From Escherichia coli (GTDB lineage: Bacteria; Pseudomonadota; Gammaproteobacteria; Enterobacterales; Enterobacteriaceae), in NCBI RefSeq assembly GCF_048403405.1, contig NZ_CP183129.1: a stretch of 64,000 bases of DNA; one strand, 5' to 3'. The position numbers and the translations under genes are program-made. Positions within the stretch are counted from its first letter, which is position 1. Each line of letters starts with the position of its first letter. The notes under the pieces were generated by a model. It was not told the origin of the DNA, did not search any database, and saw nothing but the letters and a program-made list of their open reading frames with translations. This document shows, piece after piece, positions 13,599 through 23,254 of the stretch.

Positions 13599-14228
13599 AT
13601 GACAGGTAAGAAGCGTTCTGCCAGCTCCAGCCGCTGGCTTCAGGAACACTTTAGCGATAAATATGTTCAACAGGCACAGAAAAAGGGGTTACGTTCCCGT
13701 GCCTGGTTTAAACTTGATGAAATACAGCAAAGTGACAAACTCTTTAAACCGGGAATGACGGTTGTCGACCTTGGTGCTGCGCCGGGTGGTTGGTCACAAT
13801 ATGTGGTCACCCAAATTGGCGGCAAAGGCCGTATCATCGCTTGCGATCTTTTACCTATGGATCCTATCGTTGGTGTGGACTTTCTTCAGGGCGATTTTCG
13901 TGATGAACTGGTGATGAAAGCACTGCTGGAGCGCGTTGGCGACAGCAAAGTCCAGGTTGTCATGTCCGATATGGCACCAAACATGAGCGGAACACCGGCG
14001 GTGGATATCCCCCGTGCCATGTATCTGGTGGAACTGGCGCTAGAAATGTGTCGTGATGTATTAGCGCCAGGTGGCAGTTTTGTAGTGAAGGTGTTCCAGG
14101 GCGAAGGTTTCGATGAGTATCTAAGGGAAATTCGCTCCCTGTTTACGAAGGTCAAAGTTCGTAAGCCGGACTCTTCTCGCGCACGTTCGCGGGAAGTGTA
14201 TATTGTAGCGACCGGGCGTAAACCCTAA
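13599..14228 (+). CDS. rlmE: 23S rRNA (U2552) 2'-O-methyltransferase RlmE (FtsJ/RrmJ)
   Basis: 209-aa ORF with SAM-binding motif [13 protein letters not shown]. Confidence 0.96.
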
Positions 14229-14327
14229 CCGGGAGATTTCAGACGAAAGTTTGAAAGATGCTGGATATAGAGTATCCTGACGCTGTTTTTAACACAGTTG
14301 TAATAAGAGGTTAATCCCTTGAGTGAC

Positions 14328-16262
14328 ATGGCGAAAAACCTAATACTCTGGCTGGTCATTGCCGTTGTGCTGATGTCAGTATTCCAGAGCTTTGGGCCCA
14401 GCGAGTCTAATGGCCGTAAGGTGGATTACTCTACCTTCCTACAAGAGGTCAATAACGACCAGGTTCGTGAAGCGCGTATCAACGGACGTGAAATCAACGT
14501 TACCAAGAAAGATAGTAACCGTTATACCACTTACATTCCGGTTCAGGATCCGAAATTACTGGATAACCTGTTGACCAAGAACGTCAAGGTTGTCGGTGAA
14601 CCGCCTGAAGAACCAAGCCTGCTGGCTTCTATCTTCATCTCCTGGTTCCCGATGCTGTTGCTGATTGGTGTCTGGATCTTCTTCATGCGTCAAATGCAGG
14701 GCGGCGGTGGCAAAGGTGCCATGTCGTTTGGTAAGAGCAAAGCGCGCATGCTGACGGAAGATCAGATCAAAACGACCTTTGCTGACGTTGCGGGCTGCGA
14801 CGAAGCAAAAGAAGAAGTTGCTGAACTGGTTGAGTATCTGCGCGAGCCGAGCCGCTTCCAGAAACTCGGCGGTAAGATCCCGAAAGGCGTCCTGATGGTC
14901 GGTCCTCCGGGTACCGGTAAAACGCTGCTGGCGAAAGCGATTGCAGGCGAAGCGAAAGTTCCGTTCTTTACTATCTCCGGTTCTGACTTCGTCGAAATGT
15001 TCGTCGGTGTGGGTGCATCCCGTGTTCGTGACATGTTCGAACAGGCGAAGAAAGCGGCACCGTGTATCATCTTTATCGATGAAATCGACGCCGTAGGCCG
15101 CCAGCGTGGCGCAGGCCTGGGCGGTGGTCACGATGAACGTGAACAGACTCTGAACCAGATGCTGGTTGAGATGGATGGCTTCGAAGGTAACGAAGGTATC
15201 ATCGTTATCGCCGCGACTAACCGTCCGGACGTTCTTGACCCGGCGCTGCTGCGTCCTGGCCGTTTCGACCGTCAGGTTGTGGTTGGCTTGCCAGATGTTC
15301 GCGGTCGTGAGCAGATCCTGAAAGTTCACATGCGTCGCGTACCATTGGCACCCGATATCGACGCGGCAATCATTGCCCGTGGTACTCCTGGTTTCTCCGG
15401 TGCTGACCTGGCGAACCTGGTGAACGAAGCGGCACTGTTCGCTGCTCGTGGCAACAAACGCGTTGTGTCGATGGTTGAGTTCGAGAAAGCGAAAGACAAA
15501 ATCATGATGGGTGCGGAACGTCGCTCCATGGTGATGACGGAAGCGCAGAAAGAATCGACGGCTTACCACGAAGCGGGTCACGCGATTATCGGTCGCCTGG
15601 TGCCGGAACACGATCCGGTGCACAAAGTGACGATTATCCCACGCGGTCGTGCGCTGGGTGTAACTTTCTTCTTGCCTGAGGGCGACGCAATCAGCGCCAG
15701 CCGTCAGAAACTGGAAAGCCAGATTTCTACGCTGTACGGTGGTCGTCTGGCAGAAGAGATCATCTACGGGCCGGAACATGTTTCTACCGGTGCGTCCAAC
15801 GATATTAAAGTTGCGACCAACCTGGCACGTAACATGGTGACTCAGTGGGGCTTCTCTGAGAAATTGGGGCCACTGCTGTACGCGGAAGAAGAAGGTGAAG
15901 TGTTCCTCGGCCGTAGCGTAGCGAAAGCGAAACATATGTCTGATGAAACTGCACGTATCATCGACCAGGAAGTGAAAGCACTGATTGAGCGTAACTATAA
16001 TCGTGCGCGTCAGCTTCTGACCGACAATATGGATATTCTGCATGCGATGAAAGATGCTCTCATGAAATATGAGACTATCGACGCACCGCAGATTGATGAC
16101 CTGATGGCACGTCGCGATGTACGTCCGCCAGCGGGCTGGGAAGAACCAGGCGCTTCTAACAATTCTGGCGACAATGGTAGTCCAAAGGCTCCTCGTCCGG
16201 TTGATGAACCGCGTACGCCGAACCCGGGTAACACCATGTCAGAGCAGTTAGGCGACAAATAA
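14328..16262 (+). CDS. ftsH: ATP-dependent zinc metalloprotease FtsH (HflB)
   Basis: 644 aa from ATG 14328 ([19 protein letters not shown]...), AAA Walker A GPPGTGKT, zinc site HEAGHA; the ORF-track start at 14319 is an in-frame TTG 3 codons upstream. Confidence 0.96.
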
Positions 16263-16293
16263 GTTCCCGCATCAGATGACTGTATTTGTACCG

Positions 16294-16325
16294 AAAACCC
16301 CGGGGCGTGCTCCGGGGTTTTTTCT
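16294..16325 (+). terminator. Intrinsic terminator after ftsH
   Basis: CCCCGGGG-CGTGCT-CCGGGG hairpin followed by TTTTTTT. Confidence 0.7.
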
Positions 16326-16351
16326 TATCAATTCATACCAGGGATAACACC

Positions 16352-17200
16352 ATGAAACTCTTTGCCCAGGGCACTTCACTGGACCTTAGCCATCCTCACG
16401 TAATGGGGATCCTCAACGTCACGCCTGATTCCTTTTCGGATGGCGGCACGCATAACTCGCTGATAGATGCGGTGAAACATGCGAATCTGATGATCAACGC
16501 TGGCGCGACGATCATTGACGTTGGTGGCGAGTCCACACGCCCGGGGGCGGCGGAAGTTAGCGTTGAAGAAGAGTTGCAACGTGTTATTCCTGTGGTTGAG
16601 GCAATTGCTCAACGCTTCGAAGTCTGGATCTCGGTCGATACATCCAAACCAGAAGTCATCCGTGAGTCAGCGAAAGTTGGCGCTCACATTATTAACGATA
16701 TTCGCTCCCTTTCCGAACCAGGCGCTCTGGAGGCTGCTGCAGAAACCGGTTTGCCGGTTTGCCTGATGCATATGCAGGGAAATCCAAAGACCATGCAGGA
16801 AGCCCCGAAGTATGACGATGTCTTTGCGGAAGTGAATCGCTATTTTATTGAGCAAATAGCACGTTGCGAGCAGGCGGGTATCGCAAAAGAGAAATTGTTG
16901 CTCGACCCCGGATTCGGTTTCGGTAAAAATCTCTCCCATAACTATTCATTACTGGCGCGCCTGGCTGAATTTCACCATTTCAACCTGCCGCTGTTGGTGG
17001 GTATGTCACGAAAATCGATGATTGGGCAGCTGCTGAACGTGGGGCCGTCCGAGCGTCTGAGCGGTAGTCTGGCTTGTGCGGTCATTGCCGCTATGCAAGG
17101 CGCGCATATCATTCGTGTTCATGACGTCAAAGAAACCGTAGAAGCGATGCGGGTGGTGGAAGCCACTCTGTCTGCAAAGGAAAACAAACGCTATGAGTAA
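16352..17200 (+). CDS. folP: Dihydropteroate synthase FolP
   Basis: 282 aa from ATG 16352 ([32 protein letters not shown]...); ORF-track start 16286 is an upstream extension. Confidence 0.96.
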
Positions 17201-18530
17201 TCGTAAATATTTCGGTACCGATGGGATTCGTGGTCGTGTAGGGGATGCGCCGATCACCCCTGATTTTGTGCTTAAGCTGGGTTGGGCCGCGGGTAAAGTG
17301 CTGGCGCGCCACGGCTCCCGTAAGATCATTATTGGTAAAGACACACGTATTTCTGGCTATATGCTGGAGTCAGCACTGGAAGCGGGTCTGGCGGCTGCCG
17401 GTCTTTCCGCGCTCTTCACTGGCCCGATGCCAACACCGGCCGTGGCTTATCTGACGCGGACTTTCCGCGCAGAGGCTGGGATTGTGATATCTGCATCGCA
17501 TAACCCGTTCTACGATAATGGCATTAAATTTTTCTCTATCGACGGCACCAAACTACCGGATGCAGTAGAAGAGGCCATCGAAGCGGAAATGGAAAAAGAG
17601 ATCAGCTGTGTTGATTCGGCAGAACTGGGTAAAGCCAGCCGTATCGTTGATGCTGCGGGTCGCTATATCGAGTTTTGCAAAGCCACGTTCCCAAACGAAC
17701 TTAGCCTCAGTGAACTGAAGATTGTGGTGGATTGTGCAAACGGTGCGACTTATCACATCGCGCCGAACGTGCTGCGTGAACTGGGAGCGAACGTTATCGC
17801 TATCGGTTGTGAGCCGAACGGTGTAAACATCAATGCCGAAGTGGGGGCTACCGACGTTCGCGCGCTCCAGGCCCGTGTGCTGGCTGAAAAAGCGGATCTC
17901 GGTATTGCCTTTGACGGCGACGGCGATCGCGTGATTATGGTTGACCATGAAGGCAATAAAGTCGATGGCGATCAGATCATGTATATCATCGCGCGTGAAG
18001 GTCTTCGTCAGGGCCAGCTGCGTGGTGGCGCTGTGGGTACATTGATGAGCAACATGGGGCTTGAACTGGCGCTGAAACAGTTAGGTATTCCATTTGCGCG
18101 CGCGAAAGTGGGTGACCGCTACGTACTGGAAAAAATGCAGGAGAAAGGCTGGCGTATCGGTGCAGAGAACTCCGGTCATGTGATCCTGCTGGATAAAACC
18201 ACTACCGGTGACGGTATCGTTGCTGGCTTGCAGGTGTTGGCGGCGATGGCGCGTAACCATATGAGCCTGCACGACCTTTGCAGCGGCATGAAAATGTTCC
18301 CGCAGATTCTGGTTAACGTGCGTTACACCGCAGGTAGCGGCGATCCGCTGGAGCATGAATCAGTCAAAGCTGTGACCGCAGAAGTTGAAGCGGCGCTGGG
18401 TAGCCGTGGACGTGTGCTGTTGCGTAAATCCGGCACCGAACCGTTAATTCGCGTGATGGTGGAAGGCGAAGACGAAGCGCAGGTGACTGAATTTGCACAC
18501 CGCATCGCCGATGCAGTAAAAGCCGTTTAA
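17193..18530 (+). CDS. glmM: Phosphoglucosamine mutase GlmM
   Basis: 445-aa ORF with phosphoserine loop SASHNP; ATG overlaps the end of folP. Confidence 0.97.
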
Positions 18531-18550
18531 AGCGTTAGATAACTGGCTAA

Positions 18551-18577
18551 AAAGGCGGCGATTGTCGCCTTTTTTCT
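18551..18577 (+). terminator. Intrinsic terminator after glmM
   Basis: AGGCGGCGA-TTG-TCGCCT hairpin followed by TTTTTT. Confidence 0.65.
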
Positions 18578-18757
18578 CGGCGAACACATCGGTTTTGCTG
18601 TTTTTTTCCGCAGTTGATACAATGCGATAAAATTGCCCTTGCGAAGGTCATTCGCTTTGGTTAGTATTCACACCCGCTTCAGTGGGAAAGATTAAAAACT
18701 CCCGCTTTATTGGTTGAAGCATTGGTACGCGGCAACTCCGCAAGGAACAGGTTGATT

Positions 18758-19090
18758 ATGTACGAAGCTCTTTTGGTAGTTTTCCTTATTGTGGCAATTG
18801 GCCTTGTTGGTCTGATCATGCTGCAGCAAGGTAAAGGCGCTGATATGGGAGCCTCCTTCGGAGCAGGCGCTTCCGCTACGCTGTTTGGTTCAAGTGGTTC
18901 TGGTAACTTCATGACCCGCATGACGGCGCTGCTGGCAACGTTATTCTTCATCATCAGTCTGGTACTGGGTAACATCAATAGCAACAAAACCAATAAAGGT
19001 AGCGAATGGGAAAACCTGAGTGCGCCGGCCAAAACCGAACAAACTCAGCCAGCTGCTCCGGCTAAGCCGACCAGCGATATCCCGAACTAA
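18758..19090 (+). CDS. secG: Protein translocase subunit SecG
   Basis: 110 aa from ATG 18758 (MYEALLVVFLIVAIGLVGLIMLQQGKGADMGASFGAGASATLFG...); ORF-track start 18710 is an upstream extension. Confidence 0.96.
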   Translation: MYEALLVVFLIVAIGLVGLIMLQQGKGADMGASFGAGASATLFGSSGSGNFMTRMTALLATLFFIISLVLGNINSNKTNKGSEWENLSAPAKTEQTQPAAPAKPTSDIPN

Positions 19091-19104
19091 AAAGTAGTAT
19101 CCGT

Positions 19105-19191
19105 GCCGAGGTGGTGGAATTGGTAGACACGCTACCTTGAGGTGGTAGTGCCCAATAGGGCTTACGGGTTCAAGTCCCGTCCTCGGTACCA
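19105..19191 (+). tRNA. leuU: tRNA-Leu (anticodon GAG)
   Basis: 87-nt sequence GCCGAGGTGGTGGAATTGGTAGACACGCTACCTTGAGGTGGTAGTGCCCAATAGGGCTTACGGGTTCAAGTCCCGTCCTCGGTACCA with long variable arm, anticodon loop CTTGAGG and encoded CCA; directly downstream of secG. Confidence 0.97.
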
Positions 19192-19202
19192 AATTCCAGA
19201 AA

Positions 19203-19228
19203 AGAGACGCTGAAAAGCGTCTTTTTTC
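19203..19228 (+). terminator. Intrinsic terminator after leuU
   Basis: AGACGC-TGAAAA-GCGTCT hairpin followed by TTTTTT. Confidence 0.75.
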
Positions 19229-19647
19229 GTTTTGGTCCTGATCTGAGGAATGGTTGTCAGGTATCTGTATCTCGTCCAGTTGCTTTACTCGTAGCTGGTA
19301 CTTTGAAACGATGGTGCCGGTACGCCTTAGTTATAAACTTTTCCCTTCTGCTGACATAATTGGCACTTTATTGTGTCAACTCCAGTTCCGGTACGAATAC
19401 GGATATGTTTACTTCTCGATAAACCATCCTGCTCCTGTCAGTATAACTACTGATGGCTACGTTCTGCGTAATGTTTAGAGACGCATTGATAATGTTATTT
19501 AATTACTGAGAACAATGGCCGCATCATTTAAAAAGAAAAAACTAACAGTGTTTCGGTCTGATATGGATCAGAGTTGAAAAACATGTCTGATATAAAATTG
19601 AACATTGTTGATAATTGTTTATATTGGTTGTGAACTTGGATTTCTGG

Positions 19648-21273
19648 ATGACAGTATTCAACAAATTTGTTAGAAGTTTTAAATCTCATTGGTTGTTGTA
19701 TCTTTGTGTTATTGTTTTTGGTATTACGAACTTAGTCGCCTCTTCCGGAGCGCATATGGTTCAGCGATTGCTGTTCTTCGTTCTGACCATCCTGGTTGTT
19801 AAACGTATATCATCCCTTCCGCTTCGCCTGCTTGTTGCCGCACCATTTGTGTTACTGACAGCGGCAGACATGAGTATTAGCCTCTATTCATGGTGTACCT
19901 TTGGTACAACTTTCAATGATGGATTTGCGATTAGCGTGCTGCAGAGTGATCCGGATGAAGTTGTCAAAATGCTGGGGATGTATATCCCTTATCTATGTGC
20001 TTTTGCCTTTTTATCCCTTCTTTTTTTGGCAGTAATAATAAAATATGATGTTTCCTTGCCGACGAAAAAAGTGACAGGAATATTATTGCTGATTGTCATT
20101 TCGGGCAGTTTATTTTCCGCTTGTCAATTTGCTTATAAAGATGCAAAAAATAAAAAAGCGTTCAGTCCATATATACTAGCGTCGCGATTTGCTACCTATA
20201 CGCCGTTTTTCAATCTCAATTATTTTGCTTTAGCAGCGAAAGAGCATCAAAGATTACTCTCAATTGCAAACACGGTGCCATATTTTCAATTATCAGTCAG
20301 GGATACAGGTATTGATACCTACGTGTTGATTGTGGGGGAGTCTGTACGTGTCGACAATATGTCTTTGTATGGATACACACGCTCTACGACACCGCAAGTC
20401 GAAGCACAAAGAAAACAGATCAAACTGTTTAATCAAGCAATAAGCGGTGCACCTTACACTGCGCTGTCGGTTCCCCTTTCTTTAACTGCTGATTCTGTTT
20501 TGAGTCATGACATTCATAATTACCCGGACAACATTATTAATATGGCTAATCAAGCAGGATTTCAGACTTTCTGGCTAAGCTCGCAATCCGCTTTTCGGCA
20601 GAATGGTACAGCAGTTACCAGTATCGCCATGCGCGCCATGGAAACAGTCTATGTCAGAGGATTTGATGAATTGTTGTTGCCGCATTTATCGCAAGCGTTA
20701 CAGCAAAAGACGCAGCAAAAGAAACTGATTGTTCTTCATTTAAATGGAAGCCATGAACCGGCTTGTAGCGCCTATCCGCAATCCAGCGCCGTGTTTCAAC
20801 CGCAGGACGATCAGGATGCCTGCTATGACAACTCCATTCATTACACAGATAGTTTGCTAGGTCAGATTTTTGAATTATTAAAAGATCGCCGCGCCTCGGT
20901 CATGTATTTTGCCGACCACGGCCTGGAACGCGACCCTACGAAGAAGAACGTCTATTTTCATGGAGGCAGGGAGGCCAGCCAGCAGGCATATCATGTCCCG
21001 ATGTTTATCTGGTATAGCCCCGTTCTTGGGGATGGCGTTGATCGTACAACGGAAAACGATATCTTTTCCACTGCGTACAATAATTACCTTATTAATGCGT
21101 GGATGGGGGTAACAAAGCCGGAACAGCCGAAAACGCTGGAGGAAGTGATTGCACACTATAAAGGAGACTCACGGGTTGTGGATGCAAACCATGATGTTTT
21201 CGATTATGTGATGCTCAGAAAGGAGTTTACAGAGGATAAGCAAGGTAACCCCACCCCTGAAGGGCAGGGTTGA
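19648..21273 (+). CDS. yhbX: Putative phosphoethanolamine transferase / sulfatase-family inner membrane protein YhbX
   Basis: 541 aa from ATG 19648 (MTVFNKFVRSFKSHWLLYLCVIVFGITNLV...), N-terminal TM helices plus C-terminal sulfatase-like domain; visibly AT-rich relative to neighbours; ORF-track start 19615 is a TTG extension. Confidence 0.88.
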   Translation: MTVFNKFVRSFKSHWLLYLCVIVFGITNLVASSGAHMVQRLLFFVLTILVVKRISSLPLRLLVAAPFVLLTAADMSISLYSWCTFGTTFNDGFAISVLQSDPDEVVKMLGMYIPYLCAFAFLSLLFLAVIIKYDVSLPTKKVTGILLLIVISGSLFSACQFAYKDAKNKKAFSPYILASRFATYTPFFNLNYFALAAKEHQRLLSIANTVPYFQLSVRDTGIDTYVLIVGESVRVDNMSLYGYTRSTTPQVEAQRKQIKLFNQAISGAPYTALSVPLSLTADSVLSHDIHNYPDNIINMANQAGFQTFWLSSQSAFRQNGTAVTSIAMRAMETVYVRGFDELLLPHLSQALQQKTQQKKLIVLHLNGSHEPACSAYPQSSAVFQPQDDQDACYDNSIHYTDSLLGQIFELLKDRRASVMYFADHGLERDPTKKNVYFHGGREASQQAYHVPMFIWYSPVLGDGVDRTTENDIFSTAYNNYLINAWMGVTKPEQPKTLEEVIAHYKGDSRVVDANHDVFDYVMLRKEFTEDKQGNPTPEGQG

Positions 21274-21280
21274 TGTCGAA

Positions 21281-22639
<1,359 letters not shown>

Positions 22640-22675
22640 TTAATTAACTGATGATGAGCCTGGATTTCCGCTCTC

Positions 22676-22714
22676 ACTGAATTTTTATGCAAAATAAATG
22701 AGTTTTCATTTAAT
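22676..22714. promoter_or_regulatory. Tandem ARG boxes (ArgR operator) upstream of argG
   Basis: ACTGAATTTTTATGCAAA (22676-22693) and AATGAGTTTTCATTTAAT (22697-22714) fit the TNTGAATWWWWATTCANW ARG-box consensus, separated by 3 bp, 50-90 bp upstream of the argG start. Confidence 0.55.
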
Positions 22715-22927
22715 CATCTTTTATCGGAGACAGGAAGAGTTTAGTGTGTTTTTTGTAAAATAATGCGCTTAAGGGAGAGCAGGAGAAGGCAAAAGTATTC
22801 AACAAATGAAAGTGAACCGGATATTCATTCACGTGATTAGCAATAAACGTTGACAAAATGTGGCATGGATCACTATAATGCCTGCAGATTTTACGTCCCG
22901 TCTCGGTACACCAAATCCCAGCAGTAT

Positions 22928-22956
22928 TTGCATTTTTTACCCAAAACGAGTAGAAT
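22928..22956 (+). promoter_or_regulatory. Candidate sigma70 promoter of metY (-35 TTGCAT, 17-bp spacer, -10 TAGAAT)
   Basis: TTGCAT at 22928-22933 and TAGAAT at 22951-22956, about 15 nt upstream of the tRNA 5' end; a second candidate (TTGACA 22850-22855 / TATAAT 22874-22879, 18-bp spacer) lies further upstream. Confidence 0.5.
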
Positions 22957-22971
22957 TTGCCACGTTTCAGG

Positions 22972-23048
<77 letters not shown>

Positions 23049-23170
23049 CTTTCCCTTAGAGTCCTTTTTCAAATATACTGTGAAGACTTCGGCCTTCGTA
23101 GTGGGATTTGAAAAAATCCTTCTGGAAAGTGCTCCAGACCGCAGTTGCGGTTATAGGGTTCAGTTATATA

Positions 23171-23197
23171 AAGCCCCGATTTATCGGGGTTTTTTGT
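23171..23197 (+). terminator. Intrinsic terminator/attenuator between metY and rimP
   Basis: CCCCGAT-TT-ATCGGGG hairpin followed by TTTTTTGTT. Confidence 0.65.
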
Positions 23198-23254
23198 TAT
23201 CTGACTACAGAATAACTGGGCTTTAGGCCCTTTTTTTATGTCTTGGGGGTGGGC

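Follow-up and report, generated by a model that had tools for sequence, protein, structure and literature searches.

A probable horizontally acquired yhbX cassette between leuU and argG of Escherichia coli

A 64,000-nucleotide stretch of an E. coli genome (the window; contig NZ_CP183129.1) was analysed, and positions 19234 to 21279 probably represent one horizontally acquired cassette, gained by an E. coli ancestor at a site flanked by the leuU terminator and argG. A first-pass annotation had proposed that yhbX is an old horizontal acquisition, and this proposal was supported by composition, codon usage, the absence of the gene at this position in Salmonella and Citrobacter and its presence in ~95% of E. 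coli genomes. The acquisition is an ordinary old gene gain; its significance is modest, and the current understanding of such acquisitions is unchanged. The analysis supplies exact boundaries and a polarity (gain rather than loss) for yhbX, one of the five phosphoethanolamine (PEtN)-transferase paralogues of E. coli. Furthermore, the leuU-yhbX and argG-yhbX 'intergenic' sites, which laboratories use as neutral insertion points, would belong to a foreign cassette or border on it.

In the proposed series of events, the cassette would have landed in the short stretch that separated the leuU terminator from argG in an E. coli ancestor and would have replaced the ancestral spacer, including the terminator of argG itself, leaving 7 bp between the two stop codons. 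The leader would be the promoter or regulatory DNA of yhbX, carried in with the gene. Expression of yhbX would be low and held down, directly or indirectly, by H-NS, and the argG and yhbX transcripts would collide or run together without a terminator between the genes. The YhbX protein is predicted from its sequence to be an active inner-membrane enzyme that would transfer phosphoethanolamine from phosphatidylethanolamine to an envelope acceptor facing the periplasm.

Boundaries, alleles and composition of the cassette

The features of the locus are listed in Table 1; in MG1655 (U00096.3), yhbX-leuU lies at roughly 3.320-3.322 Mb. The RefSeq annotation of E. coli agreed with a yhbX gene of 541 aa with its ATG at 19648 and its TGA at 21271-21273. 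Two earlier measurements were exact: 456 nt separate the end of the tRNA from this ATG, and 7 nt separate the convergent stops of yhbX and argG. The leuU terminator was common to all alleles and to the outgroups, with conservation seen in the HTH allele and in both Salmonella and C. amalonaticus; it had a predicted fold of -19.5 kcal/mol (z = -5.05) and is potentially bidirectional.

Table 1. Features of the leuU-yhbX-argG locus, with positions in the window
Feature	Position	Strand	Evidence or comment
leuU, tRNA-Leu(GAG)	19105..19191	+	ARAGORN; Rfam tRNA, 52.8 bits; conserved, flanks the insertion site on the left
leuU intrinsic terminator	19199..19228		13-bp stem with A-run and T-run flanks; scan flags both strands
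yhbX cassette (leader, gene and 6 nt), 2,046 bp	19234..21279	+	Breakpoint mapping against HTH-allele strains
AT-rich leader, 414 nt, G+C 0.38	19234..19647	+	Cassette-specific orphan DNA
Two overlapping sigma-70-like -35/-10 matches	19587..19625	+	Consensus scan, 9/12 positions each; 23-33 nt 5' of the ATG
yhbX CDS, 541 aa	19648..21273	+	PEtN-transferase homologue
G+C-rich inverted repeat in the last yhbX codons	21247..21271		Minus-strand fold of 21180-21300
Gap between convergent stops, 7 nt	21274..21280		Holds the right junction of the cassette; sequence and breakpoint mapping
argG	21281..22624	-	Without intrinsic terminator in the yhbX allele

Breakpoint mapping was performed against strains that carry an alternative (HTH) allele, in which an AT-rich helix-turn-helix gene unrelated to yhbX lies between identical breakpoints. 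Homology to these strains stopped at 19233 and restarted at 21280. Among E. coli genomes, the leader and yhbX were present or replaced as a single unit: the leader was detected in 5178 of 5426 genomes (~95%), at least 80% of a 2,401-nt query spanning the locus was matched in 5165 of 5426, and the HTH cassette was present in 237 of 5426 (4.4%). The genome counts for the leader allele and the HTH allele together did not exceed 5426. Two HTH haplotypes, 3.7% apart, were distinguished, and divergence was raised in the 200 nt of argG next to the cassette (dxy of 0.030 versus pi of 0.010-0.017). Synonymous diversity was 0.052 in yhbX and 0.05-0.10 in its neighbours. An old acquisition fits these results because the cassette is present in ~95% of E. 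coli genomes and has a neighbour-like synonymous diversity. Low-identity protein fragments were considered as candidates from other Escherichia species and proved to be E. coli sequences with assembly errors or IS insertions; a scan of genome contigs with the exact leuU sequence gave 16 loci, of which none was from Escherichia, and an exact look-up of the SecG sequence returned E. coli matches only.

The first-pass annotation had described both yhbX and its upstream spacer as more AT-rich than the flanking genes. For the gene, this was borne out by G+C content, GC3 and codon usage. The G+C content of yhbX (0.432, compared with 0.518 for the window) was the lowest among 59 mechanically called ORFs of the window, the others having 0.524±0.031 (z = -2.9). 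Its GC3 was 0.430 versus 0.560±0.053 for the other ORFs (z = -2.5, rank 2), and in codon-usage distance from the pooled genes it was second of 24 long genes, with pnp alone lying further away. A sliding G+C profile dipped to 0.33-0.40 across 19250-20300. Overall, yhbX clearly differed from its neighbours, and the claim of a foreign origin was not refuted by this comparison. The spacer did have 38% G+C, but the window's other intergenic regions span 0.29-0.61, a range that includes this value; the leader is distinctive by its length and emptiness and not by its composition.

The YhbX protein and its leader

The Pfam Sulfatase domain (PF00884) was detected in YhbX at aa 224-466 with an E value of 4.1e-56, and a hydropathy plot placed hydrophobic segments inside aa 13-80 and 105-163. 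From aa 41 onward the protein aligned with full-length NmEptA. Residues E231, T271, H369, D423/H424 and H449 fell on catalytic positions in alignments to NmEptA (5fgn) and EcEptC (5zzu), matching the motifs GET..., T(A)HS, GSH, DHG and H(I/V)P of these structures. YhbX thus resembles the superfamily of EptA (PmrC), EptB, EptC (CptA), OpgE (YbiP) and MCR both in its predicted N-terminal membrane segments followed by a periplasmic sulfatase-fold domain and in the conservation of the catalytic Thr and Zn ligands, and is a phosphoethanolamine-transferase homologue, predicted to lie in the inner membrane. It differs from the EptA, EptB, CptA/EptC and MCR-1 to -13 orthologue groups in scoring far below their curated cut-offs and in forming a narrow clade of its own: all 20 matches of YhbX to the NCBIfam models (EptA/EptB/CptA/MCR) were below the cut-off, the best scores being 155.6 bits for P_eth_NH2_trans (cut-off 500) and 142.4 for the CptA subfamily (cut-off 404). 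This clade comprised 121 representative clusters at an E value of ≤1e-30, and YhbX itself was confined to a single 50%-identity cluster. The gene is intact and, with a pN/pS of 0.11, under moderate purifying selection. YhbX has been described as having no established function (PMC4013655), and no later functional paper was found among those mentioning yhbX.

The leader was a single-copy, unannotated sequence in E. coli and is most likely the promoter or regulatory region of yhbX. A consensus scan detected two sigma-70-like matches, which are candidate promoters of yhbX; the total of such matches in the scanned region was not above the shuffle expectation, and positions 19600/19601, inside one candidate -35 element, varied among strains. 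The transcription start of yhbX is predicted near 19625-19635. An RNAP(-sigma) SELEX peak has been reported within the yhbX-leuU spacer (PMC5493296). No transcription start site or operon for yhbX was found in the literature searched, including SMRT-Cappable-seq supplements. A cat insertion into the leader, for which no harm was reported, counts against the preferred explanation of the locus.

Another possibility considered was that the leader is not plain promoter DNA but has an unrecognised function in its own right, for example as a small RNA, as a cis-regulatory structure in a 5' UTR or by encoding a small protein. The leader is unusually long for an intergenic region of E. coli, and its fold had a z-score of -1.9, although an Rfam search gave no match at E ≤ 1. 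Its diversity (pi of 0.016) was one third of that at yhbX synonymous sites (pS of 0.052) but equalled that of an ordinary spacer, between glmM and secG (0.014). A 20-aa ATG ORF at 19515-19577 was frameshifted in 2 of 10 strains, indels of 2-6 nt were tolerated, and both IS1 and cat insertions were found in the leader. The protein-database matches of a 74-aa ORF were E. coli ORF calls only. On this evidence, an element of this kind is unlikely. The leader was also rejected as a pseudogene, small RNA or repeat: in addition to the Rfam and protein-database results, its ORFs had no significant Pfam or PHROG match, tblastx and blastn detected nothing similar in the spacers of the outgroups, upstream of a paralogue or of the Buttiauxella gene, or elsewhere in the window, and nothing was found in plasmids.

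The argG 3' end and the response to H-NS

In Salmonella, Citrobacter and the HTH allele (L002 4361-4383), a terminator, AAAGGCCGC-N4-GCGGCCTTTTTTT, was located just 3' of argG. This terminator was absent from the yhbX allele, and no intrinsic terminator was detected by a terminator scan and folding between or just beyond the yhbX and argG stops. On the minus strand, the 21247..21271 repeat forms an 11-bp hairpin 9 nt past the argG stop, without a clean U-tract and without a call in the terminator scan; it may terminate argG transcription weakly or stabilise the argG mRNA. A published set of 165 convergent excludons in MG1655, seen in at least 50% of 58 RNA-seq samples, includes the argG-yhbX pair (PMC12288877). 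Insertion of a cassette without an argG terminator would therefore explain both the missing terminator of argG in most E. coli genomes and the appearance of argG-yhbX as an excludon. The pair resembles other convergent excludons in its 7-bp gap, in having no intergenic terminator and in its listing in the MG1655 excludome, and differs from them in that its overlap is traceable to loss of an ancestral terminator via insertion.

A junction inside argG, with the cassette supplying the last argG codons, was rejected, as strain AF39 has the HTH cassette and the ancestral terminator together with an ArgG terminus of ...KGQ. In the outgroups the ArgG C terminus was ...KAK or ...NAK; in yhbX-allele strains it was ...KGQ, and of the 6 HTH-allele strains examined, 5 had ...KVK.

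A broader proposal, and an improbable one, is that the insertion created a functional coupling, with ArgR-controlled argG transcription running antisense through yhbX and yhbX transcription running through argG, and that the yhbX and HTH cassettes form an ancient two-allele polymorphism kept by selection and not by drift. If this were true, YhbX, as an envelope-modifying enzyme, would respond to arginine status.

RNA-seq of a Δhns strain detected a log fold change of 1.82 for yhbX (P = 5.9e-7), which is an ~3.5-fold increase (PMC8894471, Supplementary Data 2). In this respect, and in an A+T content of 57%, above the genome average, yhbX resembles the H-NS-silenced xenogeneic genes of E. coli. 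Its derepression was modest beside that of classic H-NS targets in the same table, which had log fold changes of 4-6 (PMC8894471). The gene may differ from this class, in that no record of H-NS occupancy and no enrichment of motifs was found: yhbX (b3173) was not present in the supplementary H-NS tables of PMC4720273, PMC4288151 and PMC11335895, which are possibly incomplete or ordered by coordinate, and only 4 of 83 window matches to the high-affinity motif TCGATAAATT (≤2 mismatches) lay in or near the cassette. The effect of Δhns on yhbX may be indirect because of this lack of both a table entry and motif enrichment. The gene was repeatedly struck by IS1, an observation counted here among its likenesses to H-NS-silenced xenogeneic genes.

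Origin of yhbX and variation at the leuU site

Comparison with related genera indicated that yhbX is not conserved at the leuU-argG position, being absent there in Salmonella and Citrobacter. In Salmonella enterica subsp. diarizonae (L018) and two Citrobacter genomes (L015 and L021), leuU and argG were separated by ~180-210 bp with terminators and REP-like sequence; leuU and its terminator were followed by REP-like or variable sequence and then by the terminator of argG and argG itself. A tblastn search for YhbX gave no match in these three genomes, and YhbX is not listed for Salmonella LT2 or C. rodentium in a published PEtN-transferase tree (PMC4013655). In Edwardsiella, Hafnia, Tenebrionibacter and one MAG, leuU was followed by rimP-nusA-infB, and argG was absent from this position. 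The protein family was patchily distributed. Homologues of YhbX outside Escherichia were at most distantly related, with the nearest being 42-48% identical (Buttiauxella, a Pectobacterium sp., Mixta and Microvirgula); those whose context was examined (Buttiauxella, Mixta and a Microvirgula-like contig) were all at unrelated loci.

These data bear on the possibility that yhbX is ancestral at this position in the Enterobacteriaceae and that Salmonella and Citrobacter have lost it, with its AT-richness resulting from low expression and the composition of a membrane protein. The G+C content rises along the gene from 0.39 in the part encoding the hydrophobic N-terminal domain to 0.48 at the 3' end, as this would predict; however, GC3, which is independent of amino acid composition, was also low (0.43 versus 0.56). 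The Mixta homologue has a host-like G+C content of 0.61, and hence the protein family does not force a low G+C content on yhbX. A related suggestion, that the entire YhbX family is AT-rich, fitted an E. coli paralogue and the Buttiauxella gene but failed for Mixta and held only in part for the Microvirgula-like homologue. The neighbour-like synonymous diversity of yhbX would also be compatible with ancestral presence, and in the Δhns table, on the basis of the gene lists used there, yhbX carries the entry 'horizontally acquired: no' (PMC8894471). Against this, the outgroup spacers contained no yhbX remnant and retained the intact argG terminator that is missing from the yhbX allele, the more distant genera did not have even argG at this site, and the closest homologues outside E. 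coli are less than 50% identical and lie elsewhere. An ancestral yhbX is thus very unlikely, and acquisition of the cassette by an ancestor of E. coli is preferred. Candidates for the donor clade are the low-G+C Enterobacterales.

The first-pass annotation had also placed the insertion next to a tRNA gene. The adjacency was confirmed; a role for the tRNA as an integration target was not demonstrated, given no integrase, no att-like repeat and a junction outside the tRNA. The left junction (19233/19234) was 42 nt past the tRNA, after the leuU terminator, so that the tRNA is a neighbour of the hot spot and not its demonstrated target. No integrase, recombinase or remnant of one was found in the cassette, in which yhbX was the only ORF with a significant family match, and no direct repeat of the tRNA 3' end, target duplication or flanking direct or inverted repeat of note was found at the junctions. 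A very unlikely reading is a decayed remnant of a classical tRNA-targeting island, formed by site-specific recombination at leuU: a cassette of deviant G+C beside a tRNA, two different AT-rich cassettes at one site within E. coli and other genes directly 3' of leuU in one C. amalonaticus genome and in Intestinirhabdus would suit it, but it is opposed by the lack of any integrase fragment (the leader ORFs matching E. coli only), the missing repeat of the tRNA 3' end and a junction beyond the terminator that is the same in both cassettes.

The locus resembles tRNA-integrating genomic islands in that the yhbX cassette is deviant in composition and variably present among relatives, and resembles tRNA-associated islands and hot spots in its site after a tRNA and in a cargo that varies by lineage (yhbX, the HTH gene, an MFS-like gene or argG itself). 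It differs from such islands in having no integrase or att repeats, a junction past the tRNA terminator and a single-gene cargo of 1-2 kb. The locus is best classed as a gene-gain hot spot and not as a classical tRNA island, and a small hot spot 3' of leuU, with cargo that differs between lineages, is indicated. The exact 87-nt leuU sequence was found in 16 genomes of other Enterobacterales.

The leuU-argG site and its alleles

The window is E. coli chromosomal DNA; over 2,401 nt around the yhbX locus it was identical to strain TUM14771 (100%) and 98% identical to K-12. The gene order was ftsH-folP-glmM-secG-leuU, a 456-nt spacer, yhbX, argG on the opposite strand, and metY-rimP-nusA-infB. Sequence confirmed the reported separation of the convergent yhbX and argG stop codons by 7 nt. 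In a survey of 5,426 complete E. coli genomes, at least 80% of a 2,401-nt locus query (19000-21400) was detected in 5,165 genomes and the 414-nt leader upstream of yhbX in 5,178, and an unrelated 1,168-bp segment occupied the same site in 237. Homology between the two alleles ended at 19233, directly past the T-run of the leuU terminator, and restarted at 21280, 1 base ahead of the argG stop codon. These breaks set the limits of the cassette and indicated that the leader, to which the first-pass annotation had assigned no function, belongs to it.

The alternative segment (G+C, 0.37) encodes on the minus strand a 317-aa XRE-type helix-turn-helix (HTH) protein with an uncharacterised C-terminal part of ~270 aa. 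Two haplotypes of this gene (loci L002 and L040) were 96.3% alike. Its homologues were 51% identical on a Serratia plasmid and 45% identical in Rhizobium, and PADLOC and PHROG matches were weak and confined to the HTH part.

Features of the leuU-argG site and related loci (window coordinates unless another genome's locus is named)
Feature	Locus	Coordinates	Strand
tRNA-Leu(GAG) gene leuU	window	19105-19191	
leuU terminator, strong hairpin	window	19199-19228	
yhbX cassette	window	19234-21279	
yhbX	window	19648-21273	
GalR operator-like sequence, predicted	window	21141-21156	
Hairpin in last yhbX codons	window	21247-21271	
argG	window	21281-22624	minus
HTH cassette, at the site of the yhbX cassette	L002	3235-4402	
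argG terminator of HTH allele	L002	4361-4383	
yhbX paralogue	L022	438-2099	
yhbX paralogue	L025-L028	7001-8662	

An exact-match scan with the leuU sequence yielded 16 loci from other Enterobacterales. The leuU-argG gap of Salmonella enterica subsp. diarizonae and two Citrobacter was ~180 to 210 bp; besides the leuU terminator it held a REP-like or variable stretch and a canonical terminator for argG. No YhbX match was present in these gaps, so the gene was absent from this site in the related genera examined, as expected of an acquired gene. A published phosphoethanolamine-transferase tree likewise includes YhbX of E. coli and has none from Salmonella LT2 or C. rodentium (PMC4013655). The order leuU-rimP-nusA-infB, without argG, was seen in Edwardsiella, Hafnia, Tenebrionibacter and an enterobacterial MAG (L006, L010, L014, L016, L017 and L019, compared with window 19105-23254), so argG is itself an insertion here in the Escherichia/Salmonella/Citrobacter lineage. 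An MFS-like gene lay downstream of leuU in C. amalonaticus ku-bf3 (L013) and still other genes in Intestinirhabdus (L020). These differing arrangements indicated repeated gene gain downstream of leuU, first of argG and then, in E. coli, of yhbX or the HTH gene.

The argG terminator was retained in the HTH allele (fold z = -3.4) and was gone from the yhbX allele, a loss that accounts for the 7-bp stop-to-stop gap. A G+C-rich hairpin in the last yhbX codons lies 9 nt past the argG stop on the minus strand and is without a clean U-tract. The pair argG-yhbX is among 165 convergent excludons (overlapping 3' transcription of convergent neighbours) present in 50% or more of 58 MG1655 RNA-seq samples (PMC12288877), which fits the missing terminator.

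The first-pass annotation had proposed an old horizontal gene inserted beside a tRNA. Acquisition was supported; a tRNA-integrating island was disfavoured by the junction past the leuU terminator and by the lack of any integrase, att repeat or target duplication among the cassette ORFs and junctions. Overall, the data supported an ordinary, old, single-gene horizontal acquisition at a hot spot; the present analysis adds its precise limits, the second allele, the loss of the argG terminator and the nested gene gains after leuU.

Composition, protein and relatives of yhbX

The described AT richness of yhbX held: its G+C content of 0.432 was the minimum of 59 mechanically called window ORFs (rest, 0.524 ± 0.031; z = -2.9), and its GC3 was 0.430 versus 0.560 ± 0.053. 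Its synonymous codon usage was the second most deviant among 24 long genes, with only the highly expressed pnp further away. The spacer was as long as described and its leader had 38% G+C, but this value was not unusual, as other window intergenic regions spanned 0.29 to 0.61; length and emptiness are therefore more striking than composition. GC3 rose over successive thirds of yhbX from 0.37 to 0.41 to 0.51, and was flat (0.42 to 0.43) along a Buttiauxella homologue. Uneven amelioration, recombination or constraint from antisense argG read-through could each underlie the gradient. The Buttiauxella gene had a G+C of 0.43 in a locus otherwise at 0.52, and a Mixta homologue had 0.61 against 0.60; since composition varies by host, the YhbX protein does not impose low G+C.

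In YhbX, a hydrophobic N-terminal region precedes a sulfatase-fold domain (Pfam E = 4e-56). Alignment to E. coli EptC and Neisseria EptA showed the catalytic Thr (T271) and metal ligands (E231, H369, D423/H424 and H449) in place; the protein scored well under the curated cut-offs of every EptA, EptB, CptA and MCR model. Judged by sequence, YhbX is a superfamily member outside all characterised orthologue groups. One reporter screen counted a yhbX knockout among the mutants whose effects related to the envelope (PMC4551910).

YhbX formed one 50%-identity cluster in a library of 1.84 billion cluster representatives, of which only 121 reached E ≤ 1e-30. Its next full-length relatives were 42 to 48% identical and were named Buttiauxella, Pectobacterium sp., Mixta gaviniae and Microvirgula; the Buttiauxella and Mixta genes and one on a Microvirgula-like metagenome contig lay in unrelated contexts. 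A paralogue of 553 to 557 aa (~65% identical; G+C, 0.44), in a cluster of 2,955 sequences, occurred on plasmid pRHB40-C01_2 and, in some E. coli chromosomes, within an accessory island, where it adjoins WYL-domain, MFS, EcsC and GGDEF genes. The paralogue is preceded, at a distance of 52 nt, by a hydrophobic 65-aa ORF.

The leader and expression context

No Rfam family matched the leader at E ≤ 1, and its ORFs gave nothing significant with Pfam or PHROG. Matches to a 74-aa ORF were confined to E. coli ORF calls, and a 20-aa ATG ORF was frameshifted in 2 of 10 strains. The leader showed no similarity to outgroup spacers, upstream regions of the paralogue or Buttiauxella homologue, plasmids or the rest of the window. 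Its diversity was 0.016, below that of synonymous sites and close to the 0.014 of the glmM-secG spacer. Two sigma-70-like matches lay 23 to 33 nt upstream of the yhbX ATG; matches of this kind occurred at a frequency not above that in shuffled sequence. A weak peak from genomic SELEX with a minor-sigma holoenzyme fell in the leuU-yhbX spacer (PMC5493296), which withstands cat cassette and IS1 insertion. The most economical reading, we infer, is that the leader is promoter or regulatory DNA imported with yhbX.

For wild type versus Δhns, yhbX had a log fold change of 1.82 (P = 5.9e-7) in a list headed by known H-NS targets; the same table lists its A+T as 57% and classes it as "horizontally acquired: no" (PMC8894471). 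The published datasets searched contained no record that H-NS occupies yhbX, and the cassette showed no H-NS motif enrichment; direct silencing is therefore plausible, though unproven. The GalR operator-like sequence GAGGAAGTGATTGCAC is predicted within the 3' part of yhbX (PMC5110547).

Age, selection and recombination

Among ten diverse E. coli, yhbX had a pS of 0.052, a pN of 0.0057 and a pN/pS of 0.11; folP, glmM, secG and argG had a pS of 0.05 to 0.10 and a pN/pS of 0.005 to 0.03. The comparable pS indicated that the cassette is as old as E. coli diversity. The gene is constrained, far less than its housekeeping neighbours, and frameshifted and IS1-disrupted copies exist.

Flanks of HTH- and yhbX-allele strains could be near-identical (left divergence, 0.0004 to 0.003), which indicated that recombination shuffles the two alleles. 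Between-allele divergence was raised solely in 200 nt of argG beside the junction, on the right flank, where figures are less secure than on the left (anchor missing in one strain, L033). The ArgG C terminus had two E. coli variants, differing at 3/4 adjacent nt (window 21281-21289 versus L002 4404-4412 and L040 4368-4376): ...NKGQ* in every yhbX-allele strain examined and one HTH haplotype, and ...NKVK* in the common HTH haplotype, the variant nearer to the outgroup ...KAK*.

IS1 was found independently in the leader (~19417; the P0319 translation reaches the IS1 end), in yhbX (H101-H105) and in the HTH gene (L003); AT-rich cassettes downstream of leuU appear to attract it. One locus, L023 (Logan SRR3359616), was collinear with window 13650-23001 at 82.6% identity over 9.35 kb, essentially indel-free and with several genes broken, a pattern that would be unusual in a natural relative and may reflect noisy, mutagenised or synthetic DNA.
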